IMG/VR virus record: IMGVR_UViG_3300024346_000006
Direction: 5' to 3' (one strand)
From: a virus
Taxonomy: Duplodnaviria > Caudoviricetes
Length of the DNA stretch: 64,000 bases
Under the pieces are notes generated by a model that was not told the DNA's origin, did not search any database, and was given only the letters and a program-made list of their open reading frames with translations. The position numbers and the translations under genes were made by a program. Positions 2,665-62,200 of this stretch are shown piece after piece (position 1 is the stretch's first letter; every line of letters begins with the position of its first letter).

Positions 2665-5600
2665 TTAACTTCCTAATGTCGATCCAGGCGCTTTACCAGG
2701 CGTTACATCACTATATCTAATACTAGAACCAGTAACTTGCATAAACACTCTCATACCATTTCCATTTGGTAATGTTGCAGACATTCCCTCATACTTTCTG
2801 GCATTTTTTCTCCAAATATATTTAACCCCATCAGGGCCTTCATGTCCTGCATATCTTGTAACTTCGGCAGGAGAAGTTGAAGAAATTGCGGCAGGAACAA
2901 AAGAACCGCCTTTAAACTCTTCGTTTAATCCATCCGAATCATCATATTTGTTTATTTCTACATGTCCCGACTGAGTTGAGAAATCTGCAGAAGAAATACA
3001 AAGAATATCAAGTTCACTTTGTGGATAATAGAATCTTTGAGTTGTTATCTGAGTTGGGAACGAGAAAACAAAATTTCTATCTTGTGTGATAGAAAGTTGT
3101 TCCATCGGATTGATAACAGCATGAGAATCGATTTCGTGCATTGTTGCAGAAACGTGGAAATCCCATGGTTTCAATACATCTTGTTCTCTAACAACAAATC
3201 TATTGATTGTTTTTACTTCATTCATATTTCTTTCTGGGAAATCTCTGTCCTCTGGAATAGTTATGATGTATGCACTCTGAGCAGGATTTGAAGTAACATA
3301 ATTTATCAAAGAAATTGTCAATTCCGAACCCGCCCTTGGAGCAACTTTGAAATAAAATGTATGATTGAAGAAATCGTATATATATTCATTTCTCAAAGTA
3401 TTTGGTGAGGAGAATACAGGATCCCCTGGCAACTTATTTTGCAATAGATAATTACTTGTTGTCGTAACTGCTTGTGCATTAGTCAAACTAAAAGTTGGTT
3501 TTGTTGGATTTGCCGCATGTTGCGAGAAAAAGTTTCTTCCAGTTGAAGTATTTGAAGTTCCCGAATTAATTGCATATGGAGAGGTAAGTGAAATCACATT
3601 ATTATCCCACTCAACACTTGTACCATCTACAGATGGAAACTTAAAGTCTGCACCAAGTGCGTCAACTCCTGCAGCATCTAGAGATTCAACAAATCTCTGA
3701 ACTGTACTTGGGTCACCATTGTTAACCCAATCTTCATATGTCAAAATATATGCGCCGTTATCTCTAATTACCTCAACATCATCTAGTGCAACAACCAAAG
3801 ATTCAAAAACTTTGTCCATATTCCCAACAGGCGAACCAAATAGAATATCAAGCAATGCAGAATCCGCTTCTTTATAATCAACCAAACCAACAGATTCTGT
3901 TACAGTAGGAACACCTGTTCCACTTTGAGATGCATTTCTAAATGTAGACATTCTTTCAATAATGTTTTGCGGAAACGCAACATTTTCGGAGAATGAAATT
4001 CCTGCAGTGTTTGCAAGAACATAATTAGCTGAAATAGGAGTGGTTGCAGTTAACAGAGAACCACTTCTGTCATAATGTTCTAATACCGTAGTTGTAGTTT
4101 GTCCTGCTGTTGTAACTTGTTCAAGTGCAGCGGGAGAAGCAGATGCCCCAGCACTAAGTGCCACATCTTTTCTTCTTGGCAATGAGTTAAAACCTTGAAT
4201 TTGAAGGTCAAATACTGGGTCAATTACTTGTTGTGCCCATGTCGAACCAGAAAGTCCATCGGTTGGTACAATAATCCACTGTGGTGTCCCTGATTGATTT
4301 ACTGTAAAGTCTACCATAACATCACCAGAACTAGATGTTCCTTCTTCAATAGTTCCCTGTGCAGGGACAATTGGAGGGCCGGGAGCATATACCTGTGCTG
4401 TTCCAATAATATTCGCAGCAGACCAACCACTAACGAGTAGTTCTCCGTTTGATTTGTTATATGAAACAATACGTCCACCACCTGTACTTCCGTCAGACTC
4501 TAAAATATATTTGCCGGGCGTTAAAGTTTCACCAGCAACAGCGCCAGGCGAGTTTGTAATATCCACTTGTAGTTTGTATAGTGTTTGACCCCAAAGACTT
4601 TGATTTTCTGCCATCGCATTACTAGAGAAACCTCTAGTTAAATCTACTCTTATATCAGTGTGATATAATTGTCCAAGTGAGTTTTGTGTATTACCACCAG
4701 TTGCGTATCCAAGTGCAGTAAAGTCAATAGCATTAACAATACCGTTGAATAGGCCACCATCTCTGTTGACATAGATAGTTGGTGCTTCTGATCTGAAAAC
4801 TTGTCCAAGTGAGTTTTGAATTGGGCCAGGTTTACTCAAATCATCCAAATCTTGTGATGCAAAGTATGGTGTTAGACTTGAAACATCTACAGGACGTTTG
4901 CATGGTGAATATACACAATGCACTGGAGATTTTTCTGTAAACTCTGGTTGTCCAGTTGTTTGGTCAACATGTCTCTGTACTACTAACCATGCGTAGTCAT
5001 CGTCTTGATCTACTGATGCATGGTCAAATAAGAAAAGTCCCAAACCATGGTTTGTAACTGTAAGTCTATAAGACATTGGATATGTTGTTGAGATTGAGTC
5101 TTCTACTTGAGTTTTTCTAAACCACTGTGATTTTGACTTACTCATTTGTAAGATTGCGCCTCTGCCGATCGTTGGAGAGGTATACACATCGCACAATTCG
5201 CCGGGCTCTCTATAGACAGGATTTTTAATACCATCACGACCTTGTGGTTGTGAAATCGTAAAGTCATCTTTTAATTGATAAGCAGTTGCAACATTTACTT
5301 TTAAGTATTTTTCATCATCATTCCACTCAAATCTCATTCTCCACTTCTGTGGTTTTCTAACTGCAGAAGGAGAAAGGCTTGATGCAAAACTTAAGTTTGA
5401 GTCTGATAATAAATCGACTCCTTTGTTAGACTCGACTAAGAATCCATTTGTAATTCTTCTCAATGCATCTTTAACGTCTTCTTTATCGTTACTAACTGGA
5501 GTAGGATAAATCAAATCGAATGGTCTTTGGAAGTTATCATTTTCTTGGAATGTAAGCATCCAAGACGTGCCTTCCTCTGTAGTTACCAACTCTTCTTTCT

Positions 5601-6902: not shown

Positions 6903-6910
6903 TATTTATA
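6903..6910 (-). promoter_or_regulatory. T4-type late promoter TATAAATA
   Basis: Exact consensus upstream of ORF 2665-6876. Confidence 0.7.
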
Positions 6911-24856: not shown

Positions 24857-24864
24857 TATTTATA
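24857..24864 (-). promoter_or_regulatory. T4-type late promoter TATAAATA
   Basis: Exact consensus between gp7 and gp8. Confidence 0.7.
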
Positions 24865-39144: not shown

Positions 39145-39152
39145 TATTTATA
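39145..39152 (-). promoter_or_regulatory. T4-type late promoter TATAAATA for the baseplate operon
   Basis: Exact consensus about 30 nt upstream of gp48. Confidence 0.75.
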
Positions 39153-44543: not shown

Positions 44544-44657
44544 TTAGTCCCTACACATAATTCTTTTTGCTTCTTCGTATAAACCTTGTTGTACAAGAAC
44601 ATGTGCAGCTCTTGCTCTTCCAATGTTCTCAAAAGTTTCTAAAATTTTCTTAAACAT
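44544..44657 (-). CDS. 37 aa small protein coupled to the DUF1127 gene (not in ORF track)
   Basis: MFKKILETFENIGRARAAHVLVQQGLYEEAKRIMCRD; its ATG overlaps the upstream stop. Confidence 0.55.
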   Translation of the reverse strand: MFKKILETFENIGRARAAHVLVQQGLYEEAKRIMCRD

Positions 44658-44865
44658 CTTTTAAATCCAATTCCATTGCAATAGATTTTATCTGCGATCT
44701 TGCAATCCCAATATCATTCAAATCTCTATCGGACAGTGAACTTAATTCTTTTATAGTTTCTTTTTGAAGTTTTTTCAATTTCATTCTTTTTTGTAAATCA
44801 TGAATAAAATCTACAAATGGGGTAATATTTAACCAGTCTGATGCTGTTAATACTAATTGTGTCAT
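44650..44865 (-). CDS. DUF1127 (YjiS-like) small protein
   Basis: TIKELSSLSDRDLNDIGIARSQI; AGGAG precedes ATG at 44865. Confidence 0.85.
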   Translation of the reverse strand: MTQLVLTASDWLNITPFVDFIHDLQKRMKLKKLQKETIKELSSLSDRDLNDIGIARSQIKSIAMELDLKDV

Positions 44866-44991
44866 CCAATTCTCCTGTGTATGATATGTGTGAAATGTCA
44901 GTGATTCTGACACAAATATTTATTTCGCAAGTGCAGAAAATCCCCATGTCATTTTCGCAATTTCGTTATGCAATCCAAACATATCTAAGAC

Positions 44992-45143: not shown

Positions 45144-46052
45144 TTAACTTTCATCTGCAAGACGTTCAAAGTAAGAGATTGAATCATCTTCCTCGTCTTC
45201 ATTATAAGGTACAGACTTTGGTTCTGGCGCAGGCGCAGATTTAGTCTGAGTAGGTTCAGCGTAGTATGAAGAATCATCAGAAGCAAAATCTGTTTCTACT
45301 GAAACTGCAGACTGTTGAACTCCAAGAACACGATCAAGACGTTCCTTGAGTTGTTCGTAAGACTTGAACTTCTCTTCACTTACAAACTCTTCCAATGAAT
45401 ATAGTTGATTATAGATTGTTTCCAATTCTGAATCATCATCTGCAAGTGGTGCTTGAGAATCGAATTCAGACTTATCATAATTACCATAACCATCAACAGT
45501 ACGATACTTCAGTTTGAAGTTTGCACCATCCCAAAAATCAAATGGGTTGTAACGAGCCTCATCTTCAAAATGAGGATTCATTGACTCGTTCAACTTGTCA
45601 AAGATTTTCTTACCATATGAGTAAAGAAAAACTTTTCCTTCATTATCTGGGTTTGCAGGATCTTTTACAACATAAATGTTCGAAAGGAACTTGAGTTTAC
45701 GTTTACGGTCACGAGCAAGGTTTTGATTGTCTTGTGAACCAGTATTCCATAGTTCAGTATTAGACTCACAAACAGGACACTGTTTGTTGATTGTAGTAAG
45801 ACAGTTATCAATCAACCAACCGCCTGGGCCTTTAAATCCATGATTAAATACACGAACCCAAGGAATATCTTCACCATCTGTAGGGGGAAGGAAACGAATT
45901 ACAGCATAACTGTTACCATCCTTACCAATAGTTGGTTTCCAAAATCGATCATCGATATTCGATGTGGTTTGTTGTGGGGATTGGGTTTTTTCCAACTCTT
46001 CCGCAAGACGGGCAAAGTTAGATCGACCTTTTTTAAGGTTTGCAAAAGACAT
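45144..46052 (-). CDS. gp32: Single-stranded DNA-binding protein gp32
   Basis: DDRFWKP, AVIRFLP, HGFKGPGGW.I.NC, YGKKIFDK, acidic tail. Confidence 0.97.
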   Translation of the reverse strand: MSFANLKKGRSNFARLAEELEKTQSPQQTTSNIDDRFWKPTIGKDGNSYAVIRFLPPTDGEDIPWVRVFNHGFKGPGGWLIDNCLTTINKQCPVCESNTELWNTGSQDNQNLARDRKRKLKFLSNIYVVKDPANPDNEGKVFLYSYGKKIFDKLNESMNPHFEDEARYNPFDFWDGANFKLKYRTVDGYGNYDKSEFDSQAPLADDDSELETIYNQLYSLEEFVSEEKFKSYEQLKERLDRVLGVQQSAVSVETDFASDDSSYYAEPTQTKSAPAPEPKSVPYNEDEEDDSISYFERLADES

Positions 46053-46102: not shown

Positions 46103-46131
46103 AATATACTATATTATCCAAACATTGTCAA
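46103..46131 (-). promoter_or_regulatory. Sigma70-type promoter for gp32
   Basis: TTGACA-N17-TATATT. Confidence 0.75.
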
Positions 46132-46823
46132 CTAGTTTTTTTAATTAATTGACCATAATCTTCATAATAATCATCAATCAATATGTCCCTAAGAACATTA
46201 ACATAATAATCAACATCTATGTCTAAGAAAGACATATAGTCTTTTACTTTCTTAGTGTATATAGGCCAATAAGTTGTATCATTTATTTTGACCTTATCTA
46301 CGAAAGCAAAAATCTTTTCAAAGATAATTAACGTTTCTAATGAAAGTTCTCCACGTTTTTCTAAGAATACAATAAATGGGTAGTCATTGTCAATAGATTT
46401 AAATATGGAATTGAACTCCAGATTTTCCTCAGACGCCCTTGTAAACAACACATGACAATCATTAGTAAAAGTATACTTTATACTTTGAATTCTTTTTTTC
46501 CAATTTTTATATGTATCATAGGATTCTTTATCTAAAAGATTTCCTGTCCACATAAACTCATTACGAGAAATTGCAAGATTACCATTTTCTGTTACATTCA
46601 AGAACAAGGCAAGTAAAAACTCTTCCAAACTCTTTTTATCAAACCTTCTCGAAAGTTCTTCAAAAGTTCTTCTGTCTCTCCTATTATGGTAGGTTTCTTT
46701 CTTCGGCGAAACCTTCCCTTTGTACTTTATAAAATCATACTCACTATTAAAATGACTTTTCATTGCAAGATAAATTTTAAACGCCTCAAAGTCATCTATC
46801 TTCTTCCCAGACATGGTAATCAT
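46128..46823 (-). CDS. gp59: Helicase loader gp59
   Basis: FKIYLAMKSHF..YDFIKYKGK, ISLETL-like LSLETLIIF; adjacent to gp32. Confidence 0.9.
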   Translation of the reverse strand: MITMSGKKIDDFEAFKIYLAMKSHFNSEYDFIKYKGKVSPKKETYHNRRDRRTFEELSRRFDKKSLEEFLLALFLNVTENGNLAISRNEFMWTGNLLDKESYDTYKNWKKRIQSIKYTFTNDCHVLFTRASEENLEFNSIFKSIDNDYPFIVFLEKRGELSLETLIIFEKIFAFVDKVKINDTTYWPIYTKKVKDYMSFLDIDVDYYVNVLRDILIDDYYEDYGQLIKKTS

Positions 46824-47044
46824 AGAGGCAATTGTTCGGTAGACTTCCGAACCATGTTCAGTCCTTCTGCCTCGTATTTAATTTTTTCTTTTATGAAAGG
46901 ACTCAACAAAGAAACTACATTTTCTATTTCCAAATTATTTTTTTCACAGTAGTATGTGATTGTATCGATGTACGAACTGTTTAATTTAGAAACTTGTTTT
47001 TCTATTTCATCACTAAATTCTTTCGAACTCTTAAGTTTCAACAT
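46820..47044 (-). CDS. gp33: Late transcription co-activator gp33
   Basis: YIDTITYYCEKNNLEIE..LKEKI-like IKEKIKYEA..LN. Confidence 0.9.
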   Translation of the reverse strand: MLKLKSSKEFSDEIEKQVSKLNSSYIDTITYYCEKNNLEIENVVSLLSPFIKEKIKYEAEGLNMVRKSTEQLPL

Positions 47045-49921: not shown

Positions 49922-50191
49922 TTACATATTAAATTTAGACTCTGTTTTTACTGCACCAGGCATTTTGGCCACTTTATCTAAAACATTCTCCTTAAATGAT
50001 TGTGGAACTTTTTGTCTGCCCAAGCGAATAGAATCCCCAATACTTGGAGCGCCAGTAAGAAATTGTTGGATTTTTCCTTCGATTTGACAGTTTGGACAAG
50101 AGCCATTTAAATGTTCTTCTCTTTCAGCAATACGACACCAAATTTCAAATTCATGATCACAATCTGTACATTTAAAATCATATCTCGGCAT
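49922..50191 (-). CDS. FmdB-like zinc-ribbon protein
   Basis: MPRYDFKCTDCDHEFE..CPNC. Confidence 0.85.
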   Translation of the reverse strand: MPRYDFKCTDCDHEFEIWCRIAEREEHLNGSCPNCQIEGKIQQFLTGAPSIGDSIRLGRQKVPQSFKENVLDKVAKMPGAVKTESKFNM

Positions 50192-50198
50192 AATATTA

Positions 50199-50414
50199 TT
50201 AATTCTCCATAATGTGTTCTTGCGTGAATTTATTTTTCACAATAGTATTCCATTGGTTAAGTTTAATTTTACATTTTCTAAACGATGAAGGATCGGTTGT
50301 ATTGTTTCTAACGTAAACCCATTTACGACCTACTTTAACCACAATAGTCCTTCTCCCAGAACCAATGCGAGGCATTTCATCTTGCAAGTGAACTGAATAA
50401 ATCTGCTCTCTCAT
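50199..50414 (-). CDS. Hypothetical protein
   Basis: GAGG RBS; PRIGSGRRTIVVKVGRKWV. Confidence 0.65.
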   Translation of the reverse strand: MREQIYSVHLQDEMPRIGSGRRTIVVKVGRKWVYVRNNTTDPSSFRKCKIKLNQWNTIVKNKFTQEHIMEN

Positions 50415-50479
50415 TATAATTGCCTCTTATCATTATATATCTCTAACCATCTCTACAATATTGCGTTTCACGCATTTTT

Positions 50480-50508
50480 AAAAAATGGGGGGGCATTGCA
50501 CCCCCCAC
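50480..50508 (-). terminator. Rho-independent terminator
   Basis: G-rich/C-rich stem around GCAA loop followed by T6. Confidence 0.7.
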
Positions 50509-50513
50509 CAAAT

Positions 50514-50762
50514 TTACTCTTTAGTTGAAATAAAAGTATACAACTCTTGAGCCTTTTTCATAATGTCTTTGGGAACTGGCATTTCTGGTTTCATGTGTTG
50601 TGTATGTTGAACTAATTCCTCAACACTTTTATTCCATGTCTCTGCAGTCGCATTCAAAGTTTGCCAATAGGTATCCATTGCCACATGGTAACTTTGTTCA
50701 GACATTTCTTTTGCCATTTTTAAAACTTCTAGTCTAATTTCAAATGGATTTTTATTACTCAT
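50514..50762 (-). CDS. Conserved-looking phage protein (82 aa, MSNKNPFEIRLEVLKMAKEM)
   Basis: GAGGA RBS before ATG at 50762. Confidence 0.7.
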   Translation of the reverse strand: MSNKNPFEIRLEVLKMAKEMSEQSYHVAMDTYWQTLNATAETWNKSVEELVQHTQHMKPEMPVPKDIMKKAQELYTFISTKE

Positions 50763-50791
50763 CTTATTTATCCTCTTCTGTGTGATGTGTG

Positions 50792-50846
50792 TAAATAGCA
50801 ACTTTATAACGTTGCTATTTTAAATAGCAACTTTATAGGAAGTTGC
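50792..50846. repeat. Tandem 17-nt direct repeat with inverted copy (double hairpin) in gene leader
   Basis: TAAATAGCAACTTTATA at 50792-50808 and 50821-50837; GTTGCTATTT inverted copy at 50811-50820. Confidence 0.85.
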
Positions 50847-50870
50847 CACCTTTATTATATAGTACAAAAA

Positions 50871-51218
50871 TTAGAATGAAAAACTAAGTCCCACTTTTGC
50901 ATCTTCATATTCAAGCTTTTCGCTCGCTTCAATATTACTGAAAAGTGAAAGTTGTGGAGACATTGCATATGAAACACCCAAGTTAACACCATCAAAATTA
51001 ATTATATCTGATGCTACATTAGAATCATATGAGAAGTCTGCCCATGGACGCAAAACAAATCCTTGTGGAAGTGCCATTGTATATCCTAATTCAGATGTGA
51101 AATTTTCATTTTCTACACTGTACTCAATTTGTCCTTCTACATAACCTCTATTGCCTTCTGCCATTGCAGACGAACATAAAAAAACCGCCGAAGCGGCTCC
51201 GAAAAAAAACTTTGTCAT
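50871..51218 (-). CDS. Small outer-membrane beta-strand (porin-like) protein with signal peptide
   Basis: Signal peptide ending AMA/EG; alternating beta pattern; C-terminal VGLSFSF. Confidence 0.65.
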   Translation of the reverse strand: MTKFFFGAASAVFLCSSAMAEGNRGYVEGQIEYSVENENFTSELGYTMALPQGFVLRPWADFSYDSNVASDIINFDGVNLGVSYAMSPQLSLFSNIEASEKLEYEDAKVGLSFSF

Positions 51219-51244
51219 TTATTAAATCCTTTTACTATGACTGT

Positions 51245-51578
51245 GGGCCCGTTTAGTAACAAGGTGGAACCCATACCCCGCTGATCATGCTGCTAGAGCA
51301 AACTCAGGTGCAAAGTTATCGTTTGCGTTTAGTTTTGTTTGACCGAATATCGTAGGTCAACACGGTAATCTACTCTCATCTCTACACACCTGTCGATCCT
51401 ATTTCGCCCCCATCATAAACACACTACTTGCAGTATCTTCCTCTGCGTAACCTCGTTGGAGGTAACTTAGTTTATTCGTAGCCTTGCCACTTCTAGTTCA
51501 AAGCAGTGTGTTTATGGTGGAGGCGTTGGGTACTGCCCCCAAGTCCAGTATGCATGTTGAATCGTATCAACAATTACA
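51245..51578 (-). ncRNA. ssrA: Circularly permuted two-piece tmRNA: acceptor piece ~51578-51515, intervening 51514-51412, coding piece 51411-~51245, tag 51326-51285 = ANDNFAPEFALAA*
   Basis: GGGGGCGAAATAGGATCGAC 5' end; GGCAGTA T-loop; CGCCTCCACCA 3' end with G3:U70; helix 2 pairs between the pieces; tag ends ALAA. Confidence 0.93.
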
Positions 51579-51582
51579 AGTT

Positions 51583-51613
51583 TATTTATACACTATTCTT
51601 TTCTTTTTGTCAA
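51583..51613 (-). promoter_or_regulatory. Overlapping sigma70-type and T4 late promoter for tmRNA
   Basis: TTGACA-N17-TATAAA, where the -10 is part of an exact TATAAATA. Confidence 0.8.
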
Positions 51614-51660
51614 GCAAAAAAATGTATAAAAAAATATAGTGCAATAATACAACACCAATT

Positions 51661-52116
51661 TTATACCATGAGCTCAAAGTGTGGTGCATCAATAAATGGG
51701 CGCCTTCCCTGAGAACGTCTTAAATCGACATAGGCGTTCATGGCATCTTCCATGGAACCATCCCACTCCCTAATGTCATCAATGTGCCAGGCTGCACCCC
51801 AGCGGATTGCTACGTCCTCTTCTATTGCAGCTGCCTTCATTGCATCAGCAACTTCATCATACACATTGAGTTCCCAGACTCCACGGCCGCCAACATAGGC
51901 CATCAAGTCTACTGCGAGTCCATCAAGATGTTTACTCTTCATTGTTTGACTTGCGCCCTTTGCAACTAAAGCCTCTTGTTCTTCGAGCGTTCTTAAACCT
52001 TGAATCACTCCAAAATCGACCTCAGTCAATTCGATAGCACGGCTGACAACTCTAACCATGTCATCATGAACACCTTCCATTTTAGAAAGTGATCTATTTG
52101 ATAATTTAAAAGCCAT
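51661..52116 (-). CDS. Endolysin, peptidase M15 (L-Ala-D-Glu type)
   Basis: LSNRSLSKMEGVH, GLRTLEEQ, SKHLDGLAVDL, IRWGAAW, DAPHFEL. Confidence 0.92.
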   Translation of the reverse strand: MAFKLSNRSLSKMEGVHDDMVRVVSRAIELTEVDFGVIQGLRTLEEQEALVAKGASQTMKSKHLDGLAVDLMAYVGGRGVWELNVYDEVADAMKAAAIEEDVAIRWGAAWHIDDIREWDGSMEDAMNAYVDLRRSQGRRPFIDAPHFELMV

Positions 52117-52118
52117 TT

Positions 52119-52655
52119 TTAATCCTTTTCTTTTTTGTTTTCGGGGGTAGTAAATTTAAATGTAACGTCATCTGGAGTTAAAGATACGTTATACTGTTGA
52201 CTAAAAGAAACATCGGAAGTATCTAAGGTAAAATTCATACCATCAGTAATATTCATACCATCAAATGTGATAGAACCTATATCATACTCCCCAGAACCAG
52301 TAGTCAGTGTTATAGTGTCTTCTGATTTTACTTTTTGAGGAAATTCAACAATTTTTGCAGTGTTATCTAAACCGTTAAGTCTATTATACATTTCTTCTGC
52401 ATTCATAGAATATTCATCAAACAATTCTGCTCCCATAGTAGAATCATAGTCTTTATCAGTCACACTTTCTACATGTTGAATTTCACCTCTCTTAATCCAA
52501 TCAAATCCTACTGCAATCAAAAAGGTTTCGATTTTCTCCAACACCTCACCAAGTGTTGCATCTGTCGCATCGAATGAATGAGTAATAATCTCATCATTAC
52601 CAGAATCGGTATGTACACTACTGAGAGTGTAATTTGTACTGTAGTCTTTCATCAT
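52119..52655 (-). CDS. Hypothetical acidic protein
   Basis: ORF with GGAG RBS; LGEVLEKIETFLIAVGF. Confidence 0.7.
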   Translation of the reverse strand: MMKDYSTNYTLSSVHTDSGNDEIITHSFDATDATLGEVLEKIETFLIAVGFDWIKRGEIQHVESVTDKDYDSTMGAELFDEYSMNAEEMYNRLNGLDNTAKIVEFPQKVKSEDTITLTTGSGEYDIGSITFDGMNITDGMNFTLDTSDVSFSQQYNVSLTPDDVTFKFTTPENKKEKD

Positions 52656-52802
52656 TAGTCTCCTGAGAATTTCTCCTCTGTCTGTTTATATACGCCTGTC
52701 GATGGAAATGATGCCGCATTCTTGACCTTGCGGCACGTAATCCAATTCTTAATTGATTTATTTTTGCCTTCCCCATAATACACTCCAGAATTATATAGGT
52801 TA

Positions 52803-53603
52803 TTAAAAAAAATTATCAATAGTAATATCTGCTTTGTATCTTGCAATATTACTCTTGTTATGTTTTATGTCATTACTATGAACAAACGGCATATCATCGC
52901 ACCACTCATATTCTGTTTCGCCTGGACGTTTAATTTTCCACTGCAAATCTTCATCTTTTGGATATCGATTTGTCCAACAACAAGTAGAATGTCTATTCAT
53001 ATACTTTCTATCTGTCTTAGTCAATGGGTAGATATATCTGAACTGTTTACCCCATACTCTTGAAAACCCCATATCACCCATTTTGGCGTCATTTGGTCGA
53101 GGGCCATACTTTGTATCATGTCTCCCCATCTCTTTCTTCATCTTTCTTTGTATAGTCCTAAAATGCACCTTCTCGCCTGTCTCAGAGACATATACATCAG
53201 ACCATATAAAACCACCGTAAAGAAAGTTTGCAGATTGGTAAACATATCCTGGCTTTCCAACTATTCCATCTGCCCAAGTATACAGATATTTTACATCTGT
53301 ATTTTCACGCATCCATTTTACTGTTTGAGATAACATTTGAGATTCGGAGTTTCTGGGCATAGAATCATCCATACACATCTTTCCAATCTCAAAGTAATCA
53401 GAAGTTGTCAAATCTGGAAACATTTTTTTAATTGTTCCCATAGGATTAGTTCCCCATCCTAAAGTTAAAACACCAACCAGCTTATCATCTAAGTGAAAAC
53501 CTAGATAATGTTTAGTTAGTCGAGGCATAACTGCAGAATAATGGCGTTCTGCAACAAATACAGAAGCATTATTCTTGTGAAGGGGTCTTATATCATACAT
53601 CAA
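52803..53603 (-). CDS. Mom-like GNAT-fold DNA-modification protein
   Basis: RHYS, LVGVLTLG, FEIGKMC..PRNSESQMLS, LYTWAD...GYVYQSANF. Confidence 0.7.
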   Translation of the reverse strand: MMYDIRPLHKNNASVFVAERHYSAVMPRLTKHYLGFHLDDKLVGVLTLGWGTNPMGTIKKMFPDLTTSDYFEIGKMCMDDSMPRNSESQMLSQTVKWMRENTDVKYLYTWADGIVGKPGYVYQSANFLYGGFIWSDVYVSETGEKVHFRTIQRKMKKEMGRHDTKYGPRPNDAKMGDMGFSRVWGKQFRYIYPLTKTDRKYMNRHSTCCWTNRYPKDEDLQWKIKRPGETEYEWCDDMPFVHSNDIKHNKSNIARYKADITIDNFF

Positions 53604-54187
53604 ACAACCTTATAATCGCTCATAGTAGCTCGTTGTTCAACTTCATCCCACATACTTTTCTGATCTAGATAACTAAGCATATTTTCTGGAGTTGTTAGGA
53701 TATATGGATCATCATCACTTCCATCGTTATTGATGCCCGGCTCTTGCCACCACTGCTCAACAACACCATTATTAATGACACACATATATCTCCAACTACG
53801 CAAACCAAAACCTAAGTGGTTTTTACCAATCAACATTCCCATGAAACGAGTAAAGTTTCCAGAACCGTCTGGAATTACTTTCACATTCTGAATATCTTGC
53901 GACTTTGCCCAAGCATTCATAACAAATGCATCGTTAACTGAAATGCAATATACTTCATCAATACCATAATCTTTAATCTTTGAATAATTACTTTCAAAGC
54001 CTGGCAATTGATATGTAGAACAAGTGGGTGTAAATGCGCCGGGCAAGCTGAATAAAACTACTCTCTTACCTTTAAACAATTCATCACTTGTTACATCTTC
54101 CCATCGATATGGGTTTGGGCCTTCGATTGATTCATCTCTGACCCTAGTTCTGAATACCACGCAGGGTGGACTAAATCCTTCTATCAT
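53600..54187 (-). CDS. Peroxiredoxin (Prx5/redoxin type)
   Basis: FSLPGAFTPTCS, SVNDAFVMNAW, FGLRSWRY. Confidence 0.95.
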   Translation of the reverse strand: MIEGFSPPCVVFRTRVRDESIEGPNPYRWEDVTSDELFKGKRVVLFSLPGAFTPTCSTYQLPGFESNYSKIKDYGIDEVYCISVNDAFVMNAWAKSQDIQNVKVIPDGSGNFTRFMGMLIGKNHLGFGLRSWRYMCVINNGVVEQWWQEPGINNDGSDDDPYILTTPENMLSYLDQKSMWDEVEQRATMSDYKVV

Positions 54188-55478: not shown

Positions 55479-55554
55479 TGGTGCCGCCAGGGAGTCTCGA
55501 ACTCCCGACCTGATGCTTACAAGGCAACTGCTCTTCCAGCTGAGCTACAGCGGC
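55479..55554 (-). tRNA. tRNA-Thr(UGU)
   Basis: GCCGCTG/TGGCGGC stem, CTTGTAA anticodon loop, TTCGAGA T-loop, encoded CCA. Confidence 0.95.
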
Positions 55555-55748
55555 GAATTTTCTATTTCATTTTCTCGTTTTTTAATCCAGTCCTTTAATT
55601 CACAAACCCTTCCAACATACATCATATATGCAGCCTGCCATTCTGGTTCTCCAGTAAGAGCCCACTGTTGACTGCACTGATCGGCATTTTGGACTAAATT
55701 TTTAATTATATTCTGGTACTTGTCTCTAAATCCAAGTGACATAAACAT
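55545..55748 (-). CDS. Hypothetical protein
   Basis: ORF track; stop overlaps the tRNA-Thr 5' end. Confidence 0.6.
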   Translation of the reverse strand: MFMSLGFRDKYQNIIKNLVQNADQCSQQWALTGEPEWQAAYMMYVGRVCELKDWIKKRENEIENSPL

Positions 55749-55753
55749 TCCTA

Positions 55754-55918
55754 CTATTTTAAAGTCAACTCCAACTTGATTAGAATGGGTTTGTCATCAA
55801 TTATCATTGCAGCGTATGTATCACCACTTTGGATTTGTAAATCTTTTGGAGACTTACTACTATCTAAAAGTATGTTTCCTGCAACATCTATATCAAAATT
55901 TTTCTTTATATTTTCCAT
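55754..55918 (-). CDS. Hypothetical protein (54 aa, MENIKKNFDID)
   Basis: Trimmed from track ORF 55754-56008, whose 5' part overlaps the SET gene. Confidence 0.5.
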   Translation of the reverse strand: MENIKKNFDIDVAGNILLDSSKSPKDLQIQSGDTYAAMIIDDKPILIKLELTLK

Positions 55919-55940
55919 CCTCATAATATATATACTTCCT

Positions 55941-56222
55941 TTAAATCCGATAAAAAGTATATTGACATGTAAGCTCTTCGCCAGGCCAAATATCTCTAAT
56001 TGCAACAAGAAAATACCTACTGTCTCTTTGAACCTTTATGATATTTGGTTCATCAGAGTGATTATAAAAAGCACCCAATGGGGTTCTTTGCAAAGTTTCT
56101 CCCCAATAAAAATGTGACAGGCCGATTTCAGTTCCTTCTTTAATCTGATTGACGCACCAAAGTCCTAGTCCATGTATTCCTGATTTTTTTATTGTTACTT
56201 CTTCTGGTAGAGGTTTATACAT
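55941..56222 (-). CDS. SET-domain protein
   Basis: KSGIHGLGLW, FYNHSDEPN, AIRDIWPGEELTCQY. Confidence 0.9.
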   Translation of the reverse strand: MYKPLPEEVTIKKSGIHGLGLWCVNQIKEGTEIGLSHFYWGETLQRTPLGAFYNHSDEPNIIKVQRDSRYFLVAIRDIWPGEELTCQYTFYRI

Positions 56223-56234
56223 TTCGTATCCTTA

Positions 56235-56777
56235 CTATGGGTTGCCGTCTGATTTTGGTACATCAAACACGAAAGTTATTCTTTCGACACCACCTACATT
56301 ATGTGCCTGATGGTATTTTTTATTATCAAACCAGAAGAAGGTGCCAGGCTTAATAGTATGCCACTCACCATCAACTTCATAATCATATTCACCCTGCAAG
56401 GAAAGATGATACCTATCTCTAGTTAAGTAATAAGTTCCTTCGTCTATATGTTTACCTACCCACTCATCAACCCCCAACTTAAAAAAGGCGGCTCTTGATA
56501 ATTGTGTTATTCCTTGACTTCTCAACCATTTAGAAACTTCATCATATTTATCATAGAGTTCAGTCTTTTGAGTCTTTTCTGTATTCTTTGGACTTTCTCC
56601 TGGCTTTACAACTGCCATGACTAGAGGCAAAAATCCATATGGGTCTAAATCGCCTCCAACATCTTTTCCATCTGCATTTAAATTATTAACATATTTCCAG
56701 TCATCTTGGTTATCAAGAACCTGTTGTAATATCTTACTCACATCTAAGTTCTTTGCAATAAATCTAAAATTACTCAA
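56235..56777 (-). CDS. Asp/Asn beta-hydroxylase-like 2OG-Fe(II) oxygenase
   Basis: HIDEGTYY..RYHLSLQG, WFDNKKYHQAHN..RITFVFD; TTG start. Confidence 0.8.
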   Translation of the reverse strand: MSNFRFIAKNLDVSKILQQVLDNQDDWKYVNNLNADGKDVGGDLDPYGFLPLVMAVVKPGESPKNTEKTQKTELYDKYDEVSKWLRSQGITQLSRAAFFKLGVDEWVGKHIDEGTYYLTRDRYHLSLQGEYDYEVDGEWHTIKPGTFFWFDNKKYHQAHNVGGVERITFVFDVPKSDGNP

Positions 56778-56797
56778 ATAATATCCTACTCATTGTT

Positions 56798-56873
56798 TGG
56801 CTCCCAGAGAGGGGTTCGAACCCCCGACCCAATGATTAACAGTCATTTGCTCTACCAACTGAGCTATCTGGGA
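56798..56873 (-). tRNA. tRNA-Asn(GUU)
   Basis: TCCCAGA/TCTGGGA stem, CTGTTAA loop, encoded CCA. Confidence 0.95.
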
Positions 56874-56887
56874 ATAATCCTCTAAAT

Positions 56888-56964
56888 TGGTCGGAGTTAG
56901 AGGATTCGAACCTCTGACCCTCTGCTCCCAAAGCAGATGCGCTACCAGACTGCGCCAAACTCCG
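56888..56964 (-). tRNA. tRNA-Pro(UGG)
   Basis: CGGAGTT/AACTCCG stem, TTTGGGA loop, encoded CCA. Confidence 0.95.
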
Positions 56965-56993
56965 TTTATAATCCGCCGCCATGGATTTTTATT

Positions 56994-57068
56994 TGGAGCG
57001 GGTAGTCAGAATCGAACTGACATCAAAAGGTTGGAAACCTCTTATAATAACCATTATACGATACCCGC
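56994..57068 (-). tRNA. tRNA-Gly(UCC)
   Basis: GCGGGTA/TACCCGC stem, TTTCCAA loop, encoded CCA. Confidence 0.93.
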
Positions 57069-57272
57069 CTAAACTTCAACATCAATGTTACCAACTGGTT
57101 CGACTATTCTCATCTTTCCAGTTCTATCATATGTTCTATAAACTTCTTCAACTCTAATAGAGCCTCCAAAATCTTTGTGTGTTACTACAATGTTATGAAT
57201 TTTATCACCGACATTAAGTTGTCTAACATACTCACTCACAATTCTTACTGGTGGTACTGGTGATACTTGCAT
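57069..57272 (-). CDS. Hypothetical protein inside the tRNA cluster
   Basis: ORF track; GAG RBS. Confidence 0.6.
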   Translation of the reverse strand: MQVSPVPPVRIVSEYVRQLNVGDKIHNIVVTHKDFGGSIRVEEVYRTYDRTGKMRIVEPVGNIDVEV

Positions 57273-57293
57273 TACAGTAACTCTAAATAAAAA

Positions 57294-57380
57294 GGACAGT
57301 AGGTGTTGATGTTCACCGCAGTTTGAGGGGTTGCAGGCCGCTTTATTTTCTTGTACATTAGTCGCCTCTTCCTACTGTCC
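57294..57380 (-). ncRNA. Candidate structured small RNA
   Basis: Perfect 10-bp terminal stem GGACAGTAGG/CCTACTGTCC followed by T5; GC-richer than flanks. Confidence 0.45.
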
Positions 57381-57442
57381 GCCCCTGTTTAATCTTGTGT
57401 CTTATATTTAGTGTCGTTTTCAGGCACTCACTCGACATTAAT

Positions 57443-57519
57443 TGGCCTGCCCTGTAGGATTCGAACCTACGACCCACAGCTTAGAAGGCTGTTGCTCTAT
57501 CCAGCTGAGCTAAGGGCAG
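57443..57519 (-). tRNA. tRNA-Arg(UCU)
   Basis: CTGCCCT/AGGGCAG stem, CTTCTAA loop, encoded CCA. Confidence 0.95.
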
Positions 57520-57544: not shown

Positions 57545-57573
57545 AATATATCATAAACGAAACACATTGTCAA
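57545..57573 (-). promoter_or_regulatory. Sigma70-type promoter for the tRNA cluster
   Basis: TTGACA-N17-TATATT. Confidence 0.75.
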
Positions 57574-62171: not shown

Positions 62172-62200
62172 ATTATACGATCTAATTAGAAGTTTGTCAA
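62172..62200 (-). promoter_or_regulatory. Sigma70-type early promoter (perfect consensus)
   Basis: TTGACA-N17-TATAAT. Confidence 0.8.

Follow-up and report, generated by a model that had tools for sequence, protein, structure and literature searches.

The window analysed here (the whole 64-kb stretch of DNA) is a contig of a T4-like marine myophage. Its ORFs matched baseplate wedge gp6-like, hub/lysozyme gp5-like and other baseplate and tail families, its GC content was even along its length (0.34-0.39) and its sequence occurred in about 14 marine metagenome runs. Among isolates, Methylophilales phage Melnitz and Pelagibacter phage HTVC008M were the closest in gp6, with 38% and 37% amino-acid identity, respectively. 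All of the features given below lie on the minus strand. A gene for a gp33-like late-transcription coactivator (46820-47044; BLASTP against Melnitz gp33, E 4e-14; phrog_254, E 1.2e-18) was followed by gp59 (46128-46823; Pfam T4_Gp59) and then by gp32 (45144-46052; Pfam gp32); a gp33 homologue was also present in relatives. ARAGORN called five tRNA genes (Thr, Asn, Pro, Gly and Arg) at 55479-57519, about 4 kb upstream of the tmRNA gene that is the subject of this analysis. The early region also encoded a DUF1127 protein (44650-44913; Pfam E 6.9e-10), and early-region accessory genes encoded a Mom-family protein (52803-53603; E 9e-49), a peroxiredoxin (53600-54187) and a cupin/Asp-Asn hydroxylase-like protein (56235-56777), the last of which adjoins the tRNA genes.

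At about 51613-51240 the window carries a permuted alpha-type tmRNA gene, which was identified by both ARAGORN and Rfam. ARAGORN placed a permuted tmRNA at 51194-51608, with the tag ANDNFAPEFALAA followed by a stop. Full-length matches were obtained to the Rfam covariance models RF01849 (alpha_tmRNA; 119 bits, E 7.5e-32, 51632-51242) and RF04321 (tmRNA_permuted; 125.3 bits, E 4.4e-24, 51577-51285); both were far above the gathering scores of 50 and 47, respectively, and the alpha model was the clan member retained. An earlier note, made from the sequence alone, had proposed a two-piece tmRNA here, and all three calls bore this out on the same strand. The elements on which it had relied, namely G3:U70, a CCA-ending piece ahead of the GGGGGCG piece, the GGCAGUA T-loop and the tag, were each found in the sequence. 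The gene is a complete phage-borne permuted alpha-type tmRNA gene.

The permuted order was evident from the encoded 3' end, a discriminator A plus CCA (51518-51515), which lies upstream of GGGGGCG (51411-51405) on the same strand. The latter pairs with CGCCUCC (51525-51519) to form an acceptor stem of seven pairs that includes the G3:U70 alanine identity, the U opposite G3 being nucleotide 51521. The acceptor piece, of about 63 nt (51577-51515), comprises the T arm, CGCCUCC and ACCA together with the 5' strand of a long helix formed with the coding piece; its start at G 51577 is predicted from promoter geometry, and the RF04321 alignment begins there. The T arm (51542-51526), with UUGGG/CCCAA enclosing the loop GGCAGUA (51537-51531), matched the RF01849 consensus GGGGCgGUACCC, and the loop is of the alpha type, GGCRGUA. 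The coding piece (51411-51240; the RF01849 alignment reaches 51242) contains GGGGGCG, the SmpB-side loop GAAAUAGGAUCGAC, which agreed with the Rfam consensus, a PK1-like region, the tag frame and a 3' pseudoknot-like region at about 51281-51242. The PK1-like region (about 51366-51339) aligned to the RF01849 consensus and CCG/CGG and UUGAC/GUCAA pairings are possible within it, although RF01849 has no pseudoknot annotation and the region is invariant in relatives and hence shows no covariation. The tag frame (51326-51285; 283-324 of the ARAGORN gene) begins with the alanine resume codon GCA at 51326, ends in GCA followed by the UGA stop at 51285 and specifies a hydrophobic end of the A-x-AA type. 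An ALAA end is a canonical ClpXP-type degron.

When the same-tag clade was aligned, both mature pieces proved near-invariant. Acceptor pairs 5 and 6 covaried among relatives and G3:U70 was kept, as in GGGGGCG/CGCCUCC, GGGGCUG/CAGCUCC and GGGGCCG/CGGCUCC; these relatives had been picked by a tag pattern that left the stem unconstrained. Compensatory changes were also present in the 3' helix GGGUUC/GGGCCC in two relatives of the same alignment (L002 and L003).

In common with bacterial alpha-type tmRNA (RF01849), the gene has the permuted order, G3:U70, the GGCRGUA T-loop and a tag of the kind ANDNFA-x-EFA-x-AA, and its 3' pseudoknot was likewise aligned by the model. The corresponding Caulobacter tag, which the earlier note had given correctly, was found in the Caulobacter literature as AANDNFAEEFAVAA; ssrA of Caulobacter crescentus was reportedly described as a two-piece tmRNA by Keiler, Shapiro and Williams in 2000. 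Compared with a bacterial member the gene had about half the RF01849 score (119 as against 241 bits) and was about 45 nt shorter after the tag stop, so that it may lack part of what the bacterial 3' domain does. Its 103-nt spacer contrasts with the 2-13 nt of several small-genome bacterial examples, its promoter, unlike theirs, is of phage type and its position in a tree was far from all 30 bacterial rows.

Ahead of the acceptor piece is a -35 hexamer, TTGACA (51613-51608), which is preceded by an A/T-rich stretch and is invariant in same-tag relatives. Seventeen nucleotides after it lies the box TATAAATA (51590-51583), in which a -10-like TATAAA is combined with a T4-type late box. The arrangement TTGACA-N17-TATAAATA did not vary among all the same-tag relatives, even in the divergent L003 with its otherwise unalignable flanks, and was found at an equal distance in front of the Melnitz tmRNA. 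When 122 unique upstream regions of viral tmRNA genes were compared, 60 contained TATAAATA, in most cases 34-40 nt ahead of the T arm, and 39 of these, from diverse genes, contained the perfect composite TTGACA-N17-TATAAATA at a fixed distance. The promoter that the earlier note had read from the window alone recurs in the lineage, in Melnitz and in 39 of the 122 viral regions.

Other early-type promoters (TTGACA-N17-TATwwT) were present on the minus strand, in the early region of the window, at 62200, 60543, 59760, 59365, 57573, 48799, 47109 and 46131, the one at 57573 directly before tRNA-Arg. An A/T-rich stretch lies ahead of several of these promoters. Among the early-type promoters of the window, that of the tmRNA alone has a -10 that doubles as a T4 late box (TATAAA-TA), and it has A at -7, where every other early-type promoter of the window has T. 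A generic promoter scan omitted it because TATAAA is without the usual T at -7; the same A implies that use by host sigma-70, or early expression, may be weak. Judged against sigma-70 promoters, the -35 hexamer and the 17-nt spacing were perfect and the -10 deviated at -7.

Resemblance to T4-type late promoters was found at the level of sequence in the box at 51590-51583, in the boxes before structural genes and in the presence of a gp33 homologue. Five further TATAAATA boxes (2602-2609, 2628-2635, 6903-6910, 24857-24864 and 39145-39152) precede tail and baseplate genes, at 26-57 nt from the gene start. Both promoter readings place the transcription start near G 51577, which is the start of the RF04321 alignment, so the acceptor piece may need no 5' processing. 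The predicted dual reading of the tmRNA promoter, early and late, is well supported by comparison. A T4 middle promoter was considered and rejected: the sequence TTTGCTTGA before the -35 hexamer resembles a MotA box, but its 19-nt spacing to the -10 is unsuitable. In four relatives (L002, L007, L008 and L017) the upstream gene is separated from the tmRNA promoter by about 170 additional bases that contain a GGGGAUAC...CCCC hairpin; this stretch is absent from the window (51614-51660).

The two pieces of the gene are separated by an intervening segment of 103 nt (51514-51412), which is predicted from comparison and folding to be excised. Its closing stem consists of 14 bp (51514-51501 with 51429-51416), and the leader UGAU (51415-51412) sits between this stem and G1. 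The minimum free energy fold of the acceptor piece plus spacer (-52.9 kcal/mol) was a single continuous helix. Across 67 viral tmRNA genes the stem starts directly after ACCA, its partner strand ends 4-5 nt before G1 and its mean length was 10.8 contiguous pairs, compared with 5.3 in shuffled sequences; many compensatory changes and a UGAU-like leader were also found in these genes. Within the same-tag clade the spacers ranged from 39 to 149 nt and were unrelated in sequence, the identity of the spacer core being 0.03-0.38 between relatives with flanks that were 88-99% identical. It is because the core is hypervariable and the closing stem covaries that the spacer is read as excised; the pattern is the one expected of a precursor segment removed by tRNA-processing enzymes, on comparative grounds that fall short of proof. 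The idea that the spacer is a conserved passenger sRNA was rejected. No second copy of the 75-nt spacer core was found in the DNA collections searched, the cores of relatives were unrelated, and since the core is unconserved this reading was dropped as a feature of the lineage; the spacer may still hold a strain-specific RNA.

The longest ORF in the spacer of the window has 7 codons. Among 107 unique viral spacers, 11 contained an ORF of at least 30 codons with a Shine-Dalgarno-like motif, compared with an average of 0.96 in shuffles (maximum 4 in 100). Two contigs of the window's own clade (L006 and L016) have in their spacer a tryptophan-rich ORF of 47 codons that is preceded by a Shine-Dalgarno motif, and versions of this ORF that differ by conservative changes are present in L033 and L074. 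The L033 spacer was 92% identical to that of L006 and L016, yet its flanks are unrelated and its promoter is different.

Downstream of the tmRNA gene is an ORF of 115 aa (50871-51218), taken from the ORF list, with a signal-peptide-like N terminus and the Shine-Dalgarno sequence AAGGA. Pfam and PHROG searches with this ORF gave no match; the substitutions among relatives look coding. A terminator scan detected a terminator-like hairpin, GGAGCCGC-UUCG-GCGGUUUU followed by a U run (51200-51174; fold -10.4 kcal/mol), which overlaps codons 7-15 of the ORF and is kept in close relatives. At the corresponding position the divergent L003 lacks an ORF and carries a clean 11-bp terminator. Because the ORF has no promoter of its own, it would depend on read-through and may be expressed in this way from the tmRNA promoter.

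Relatives were sought with a degenerate pattern for the first ten tag residues in IMG/VR and in GTDB species genomes. The scan returned 18 IMG/VR contigs and one GTDB species genome, a Caulobacteraceae MAG that carries the identical tag ANDNFAPEFALAA. In 15 of the 18 contigs ARAGORN called a tmRNA with the identical tag and the other three were recovered by Rfam, two of them being cut by contig ends; the same-tag gene was thereby located in at least 17 IMG/VR contigs. The longer fragments have a syntenic tRNA cluster about 4 kb upstream of the tmRNA. More widely, the alpha-type T arm and acceptor-strand pattern occurred in at least 120 viral contigs; in 80 loci of these, ARAGORN called 59 permuted tmRNAs with diverse tags, most with a GC content of 0.30-0.45. 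The survey of related phages that the earlier note had suggested yielded the same arrangement in at least 17 IMG/VR contigs and an alpha-type two-piece tmRNA in at least 120 viral contigs.

Two-piece tmRNAs of phages have already been published and catalogued, and what is new here is one more uncultured marine phage lineage. Buchholz et al. (2022) described the two-piece tmRNA of Melnitz and counted 53 tmRNAs of this form across phage genomes, of which 50 were aquatic (PMC9004378), and a 2025 tmRNA database holds 79 phage tmRNA sequences (PMC11915505).

Conservation of the tag bears on the possibility that proteolytic tagging is the main role of the gene, with the phage's own tag sending stalled host proteins and incomplete proteins to proteases and so recycling amino acids. 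The exact tag is conserved in the lineage, in 15 of the 18 contigs of the pattern scan, with the ALAA degron kept, an observation that is partly built in because the scan pattern demanded the first ten residues; amino-acid recycling has also been proposed for Melnitz (PMC9004378). Tagging and rescue are, on the other hand, one reaction, inseparable from sequence, and we regard tagging as quite unlikely to be the main role.

The recurrence of the arrangement also bears on whether the gene is host DNA, brought in by an assembly chimera, a prophage junction or an attP-type ssrA fragment for integration. Integration at tmRNA genes is common, and fragments of ssrA are carried by some phages (PMC9004378, PMC12656738). 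The gene in the window is complete with both pieces, however, and lies between phage genes of the same strand in a T4-like genome of the lytic type with even GC content. The same arrangement recurs in at least 17 viral contigs, its phage-type promoter is shared with Melnitz, and BLAST searches of 401 alphaproteobacterial genomes gave mostly matches of 30-50 nt. Host DNA is on this evidence extremely improbable, and with T4-like gp6, gp5, gp32, gp59 and gp33 genes around the locus a chimera or prophage junction is excluded for practical purposes. The concern raised by the earlier note, that the contig might be a chimera with host DNA, was accordingly dispelled by the T4-like gene content, the even GC content and the recurrent arrangement. 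Recent capture from a host was rejected as well, the 401 alphaproteobacterial genomes having given only these mostly 30-50-nt matches and no identified donor. Elsewhere in the collection, the tag ANESYALAA was common to a bacterial genome of about 1.3 Mb (L166, a small-genome alphaproteobacterium; locus GC 0.31) and to four IMG/VR contigs (L060, L077, L081 and L088), so that, in contrast to the lineage of the window, host DNA or recent capture may account for some of the "viral" tmRNA contigs.

A tree was built from the mature parts of 110 viral and 30 bacterial rows, the latter alphaproteobacterial and including 11 rows from low-GC loci. In this tree, which is drawn from a short RNA and a small bacterial sample and has unsettled bootstrap values, the viral tmRNAs mostly grouped apart from the 30 sampled bacterial ones, and 2-3 changes of the viral label were sufficient to account for it. 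The clade of the window had support of 100/99, and its path distance was about 2.4 to the nearest bacterial row and 0.03-0.05 to its relatives. Low-GC bacterial rows had bacterial nearest neighbours, which indicates that base composition alone is insufficient to explain the grouping.

From the type of tmRNA, the earlier note had deduced an alphaproteobacterial host. Such a host does not follow from the tmRNA type, since Melnitz, with an alpha-type tmRNA behind the same promoter, infects the non-alphaproteobacterium OM43 (PMC9004378). Given the Melnitz host and the separate grouping of the viral tmRNAs, tmRNA type is unfit for host prediction: the alpha type indicates the source of the gene and not the host of the phage. 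The identical tag in the Caulobacteraceae MAG and the DUF1127 protein (44650-44913) are hints of an alphaproteobacterial host, and for the phage of the window we consider the chances of such a host to be about even.

Melnitz and the pelagimyophages (PMC9004378) are the closest known systems, being likewise marine T4-like myophages with an alpha-type permuted tmRNA. Melnitz and the window share a promoter of identical architecture, equally far from the T arm in both, the closing stem and UGAU leader that enclose the spacer, and a neighbourhood of a cell-wall hydrolase, PhoH, a PD-(D/E)XK nuclease, gp33, gp59 and gp32. They differ in gp6 (only about 38% amino-acid identity), in the tmRNA region (about 77% identity over a third of it), in the tag (ANDNYVPVDYALAA in Melnitz, ANDNFAPEFALAA in the window) and in the position of the gene, which lies between the hydrolase and PhoH in the window and adjoins gp33 in Melnitz. 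The Melnitz spacer holds a possible small ORF; that of the window does not. A glutamine riboswitch adjoins the Melnitz tmRNA, whereas the window has none after the gene, a permissive Rfam scan of 50000-53000 having detected no such element. The glutamine-riboswitch-like sequence of Melnitz (3912-3990 of locus L001) follows the 3' end of the tmRNA, before the next ORF, and looks placed to control that ORF and not the tmRNA.

The earlier note had reported that the window encodes no SmpB, and the search agreed: tblastn with Caulobacteraceae SmpB detected none in the window (best E 5.4). PF01668 likewise detected no SmpB in the records of four relatives, two of which are 79% and 85% complete, and did detect the SmpB of the MAG. 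With no phage SmpB in the window or in the four relatives, host SmpB would be needed. Phage tmRNA without phage SmpB is also known from mycobacteriophages of the Bxz1 group and from Bacillus phage G, in which, by contrast, the tmRNAs are one-piece and non-permuted and the hosts belong to other phyla (PMC4131195). The lack of a phage SmpB in the window and the four relatives would be in keeping with a decoy role, in which the RNA titrates the SmpB of the host or competes with its tmRNA; such a role has been reported for the molecule of mycobacteriophage DS6A that consists of a tRNA-like domain only (PMC4131195). A decoy would have no need of the full tag frame with resume codon, stop and degron or of the PK1-like region, all of which are conserved, and this role is very unlikely.

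Sequence words of the stretch were present in 14 marine DNA runs and six RNA libraries. When the contigs of four RNA libraries were aligned, high depth was confined to the tRNA-like segments that are common to all alpha tmRNAs, and apparent joints across the spacer proved to be relatives with other spacers; the libraries were compared as contigs, which cannot reveal transcript ends. Two long RNA-library contigs, from freshwater and salt-marsh samples, were relatives with about 93% identity and could be carried-over DNA.

Taken together, we consider it probable that the gene is a functional phage copy of the alpha-type two-piece tmRNA, used with host factors and expressed throughout infection. 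With regard to the timing of transcription, the processing, the charging and the benefit of the phage tmRNA, we infer the following course. A single precursor of about 400 nt would be transcribed from the composite promoter, with its start near G 51577: early in infection host sigma-70 RNA polymerase would read TTGACA-N17-TATAAA, and late in infection machinery of the gp55/gp33 type would read TATAAATA. The precursor would fold such that the acceptor stem runs on into the 14-bp stem that closes the 103-nt spacer. Host tRNA-processing enzymes could then excise the spacer, by an RNase P cut at G1 (51411) and by 3' trimming to ACCA (51515), after which the acceptor piece (about 63 nt) and the coding piece (about 170 nt) would remain joined by base pairing. 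The host would provide alanyl-tRNA synthetase, which recognises G3:U70, together with SmpB and EF-Tu. The charged RNA would enter ribosomes stalled on broken messages, add ANDNFAPEFALAA and free the ribosome, and the tagged fragment would pass to proteolysis of the ClpXP type. The likely benefit is that ribosomes would be kept available while host and phage mRNAs are degraded during infection.

The same supply of tmRNA could serve counter-defence, the extra copies clearing, all through infection, ribosomes that have been stalled by abortive-infection or toxin RNases cutting mRNA or tRNA. The composite early-plus-late promoter is compatible with such a role and the co-occurring phage tRNA cluster fits it; tRNA clusters in other phages have been linked to the replacement of cleaved tRNAs. 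Counter-defence is nevertheless purely a matter of conjecture, as nothing in the window ties the gene to a defence system and the truncated mRNAs of ordinary infection already explain a benefit, and we think it rather unlikely. The literature searched yielded no experimental study of a phage tmRNA within the host of that phage. Counter-defence, tag-driven recycling and an SmpB decoy are variants that are inseparable by sequence. For the preferred reading, rescue with host factors throughout infection, a laboratory system already exists: since Melnitz is culturable and has the same promoter, continuous expression could be tested in it.

Two features of these genes extend beyond the window. About one in three of the diverse viral alpha-type tmRNA genes has the fused early/late promoter, positioned at a fixed distance, and the spacer has been swapped wholesale between near-identical phages. 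It can tentatively be suggested, as a possibility that we hold with limited confidence, that marine T4-like phages keep a long-standing tmRNA radiation of their own, with a dual-fired composite promoter and a stem-closed slot for swappable spacers. If so, the tmRNA locus would be a phage-adapted expression module and not a borrowed host gene; the composite promoter would supply tmRNA through the whole of infection, and the spacer slot, non-coding in the window, would hold a conserved gene for a small protein in a sister contig of the lineage.
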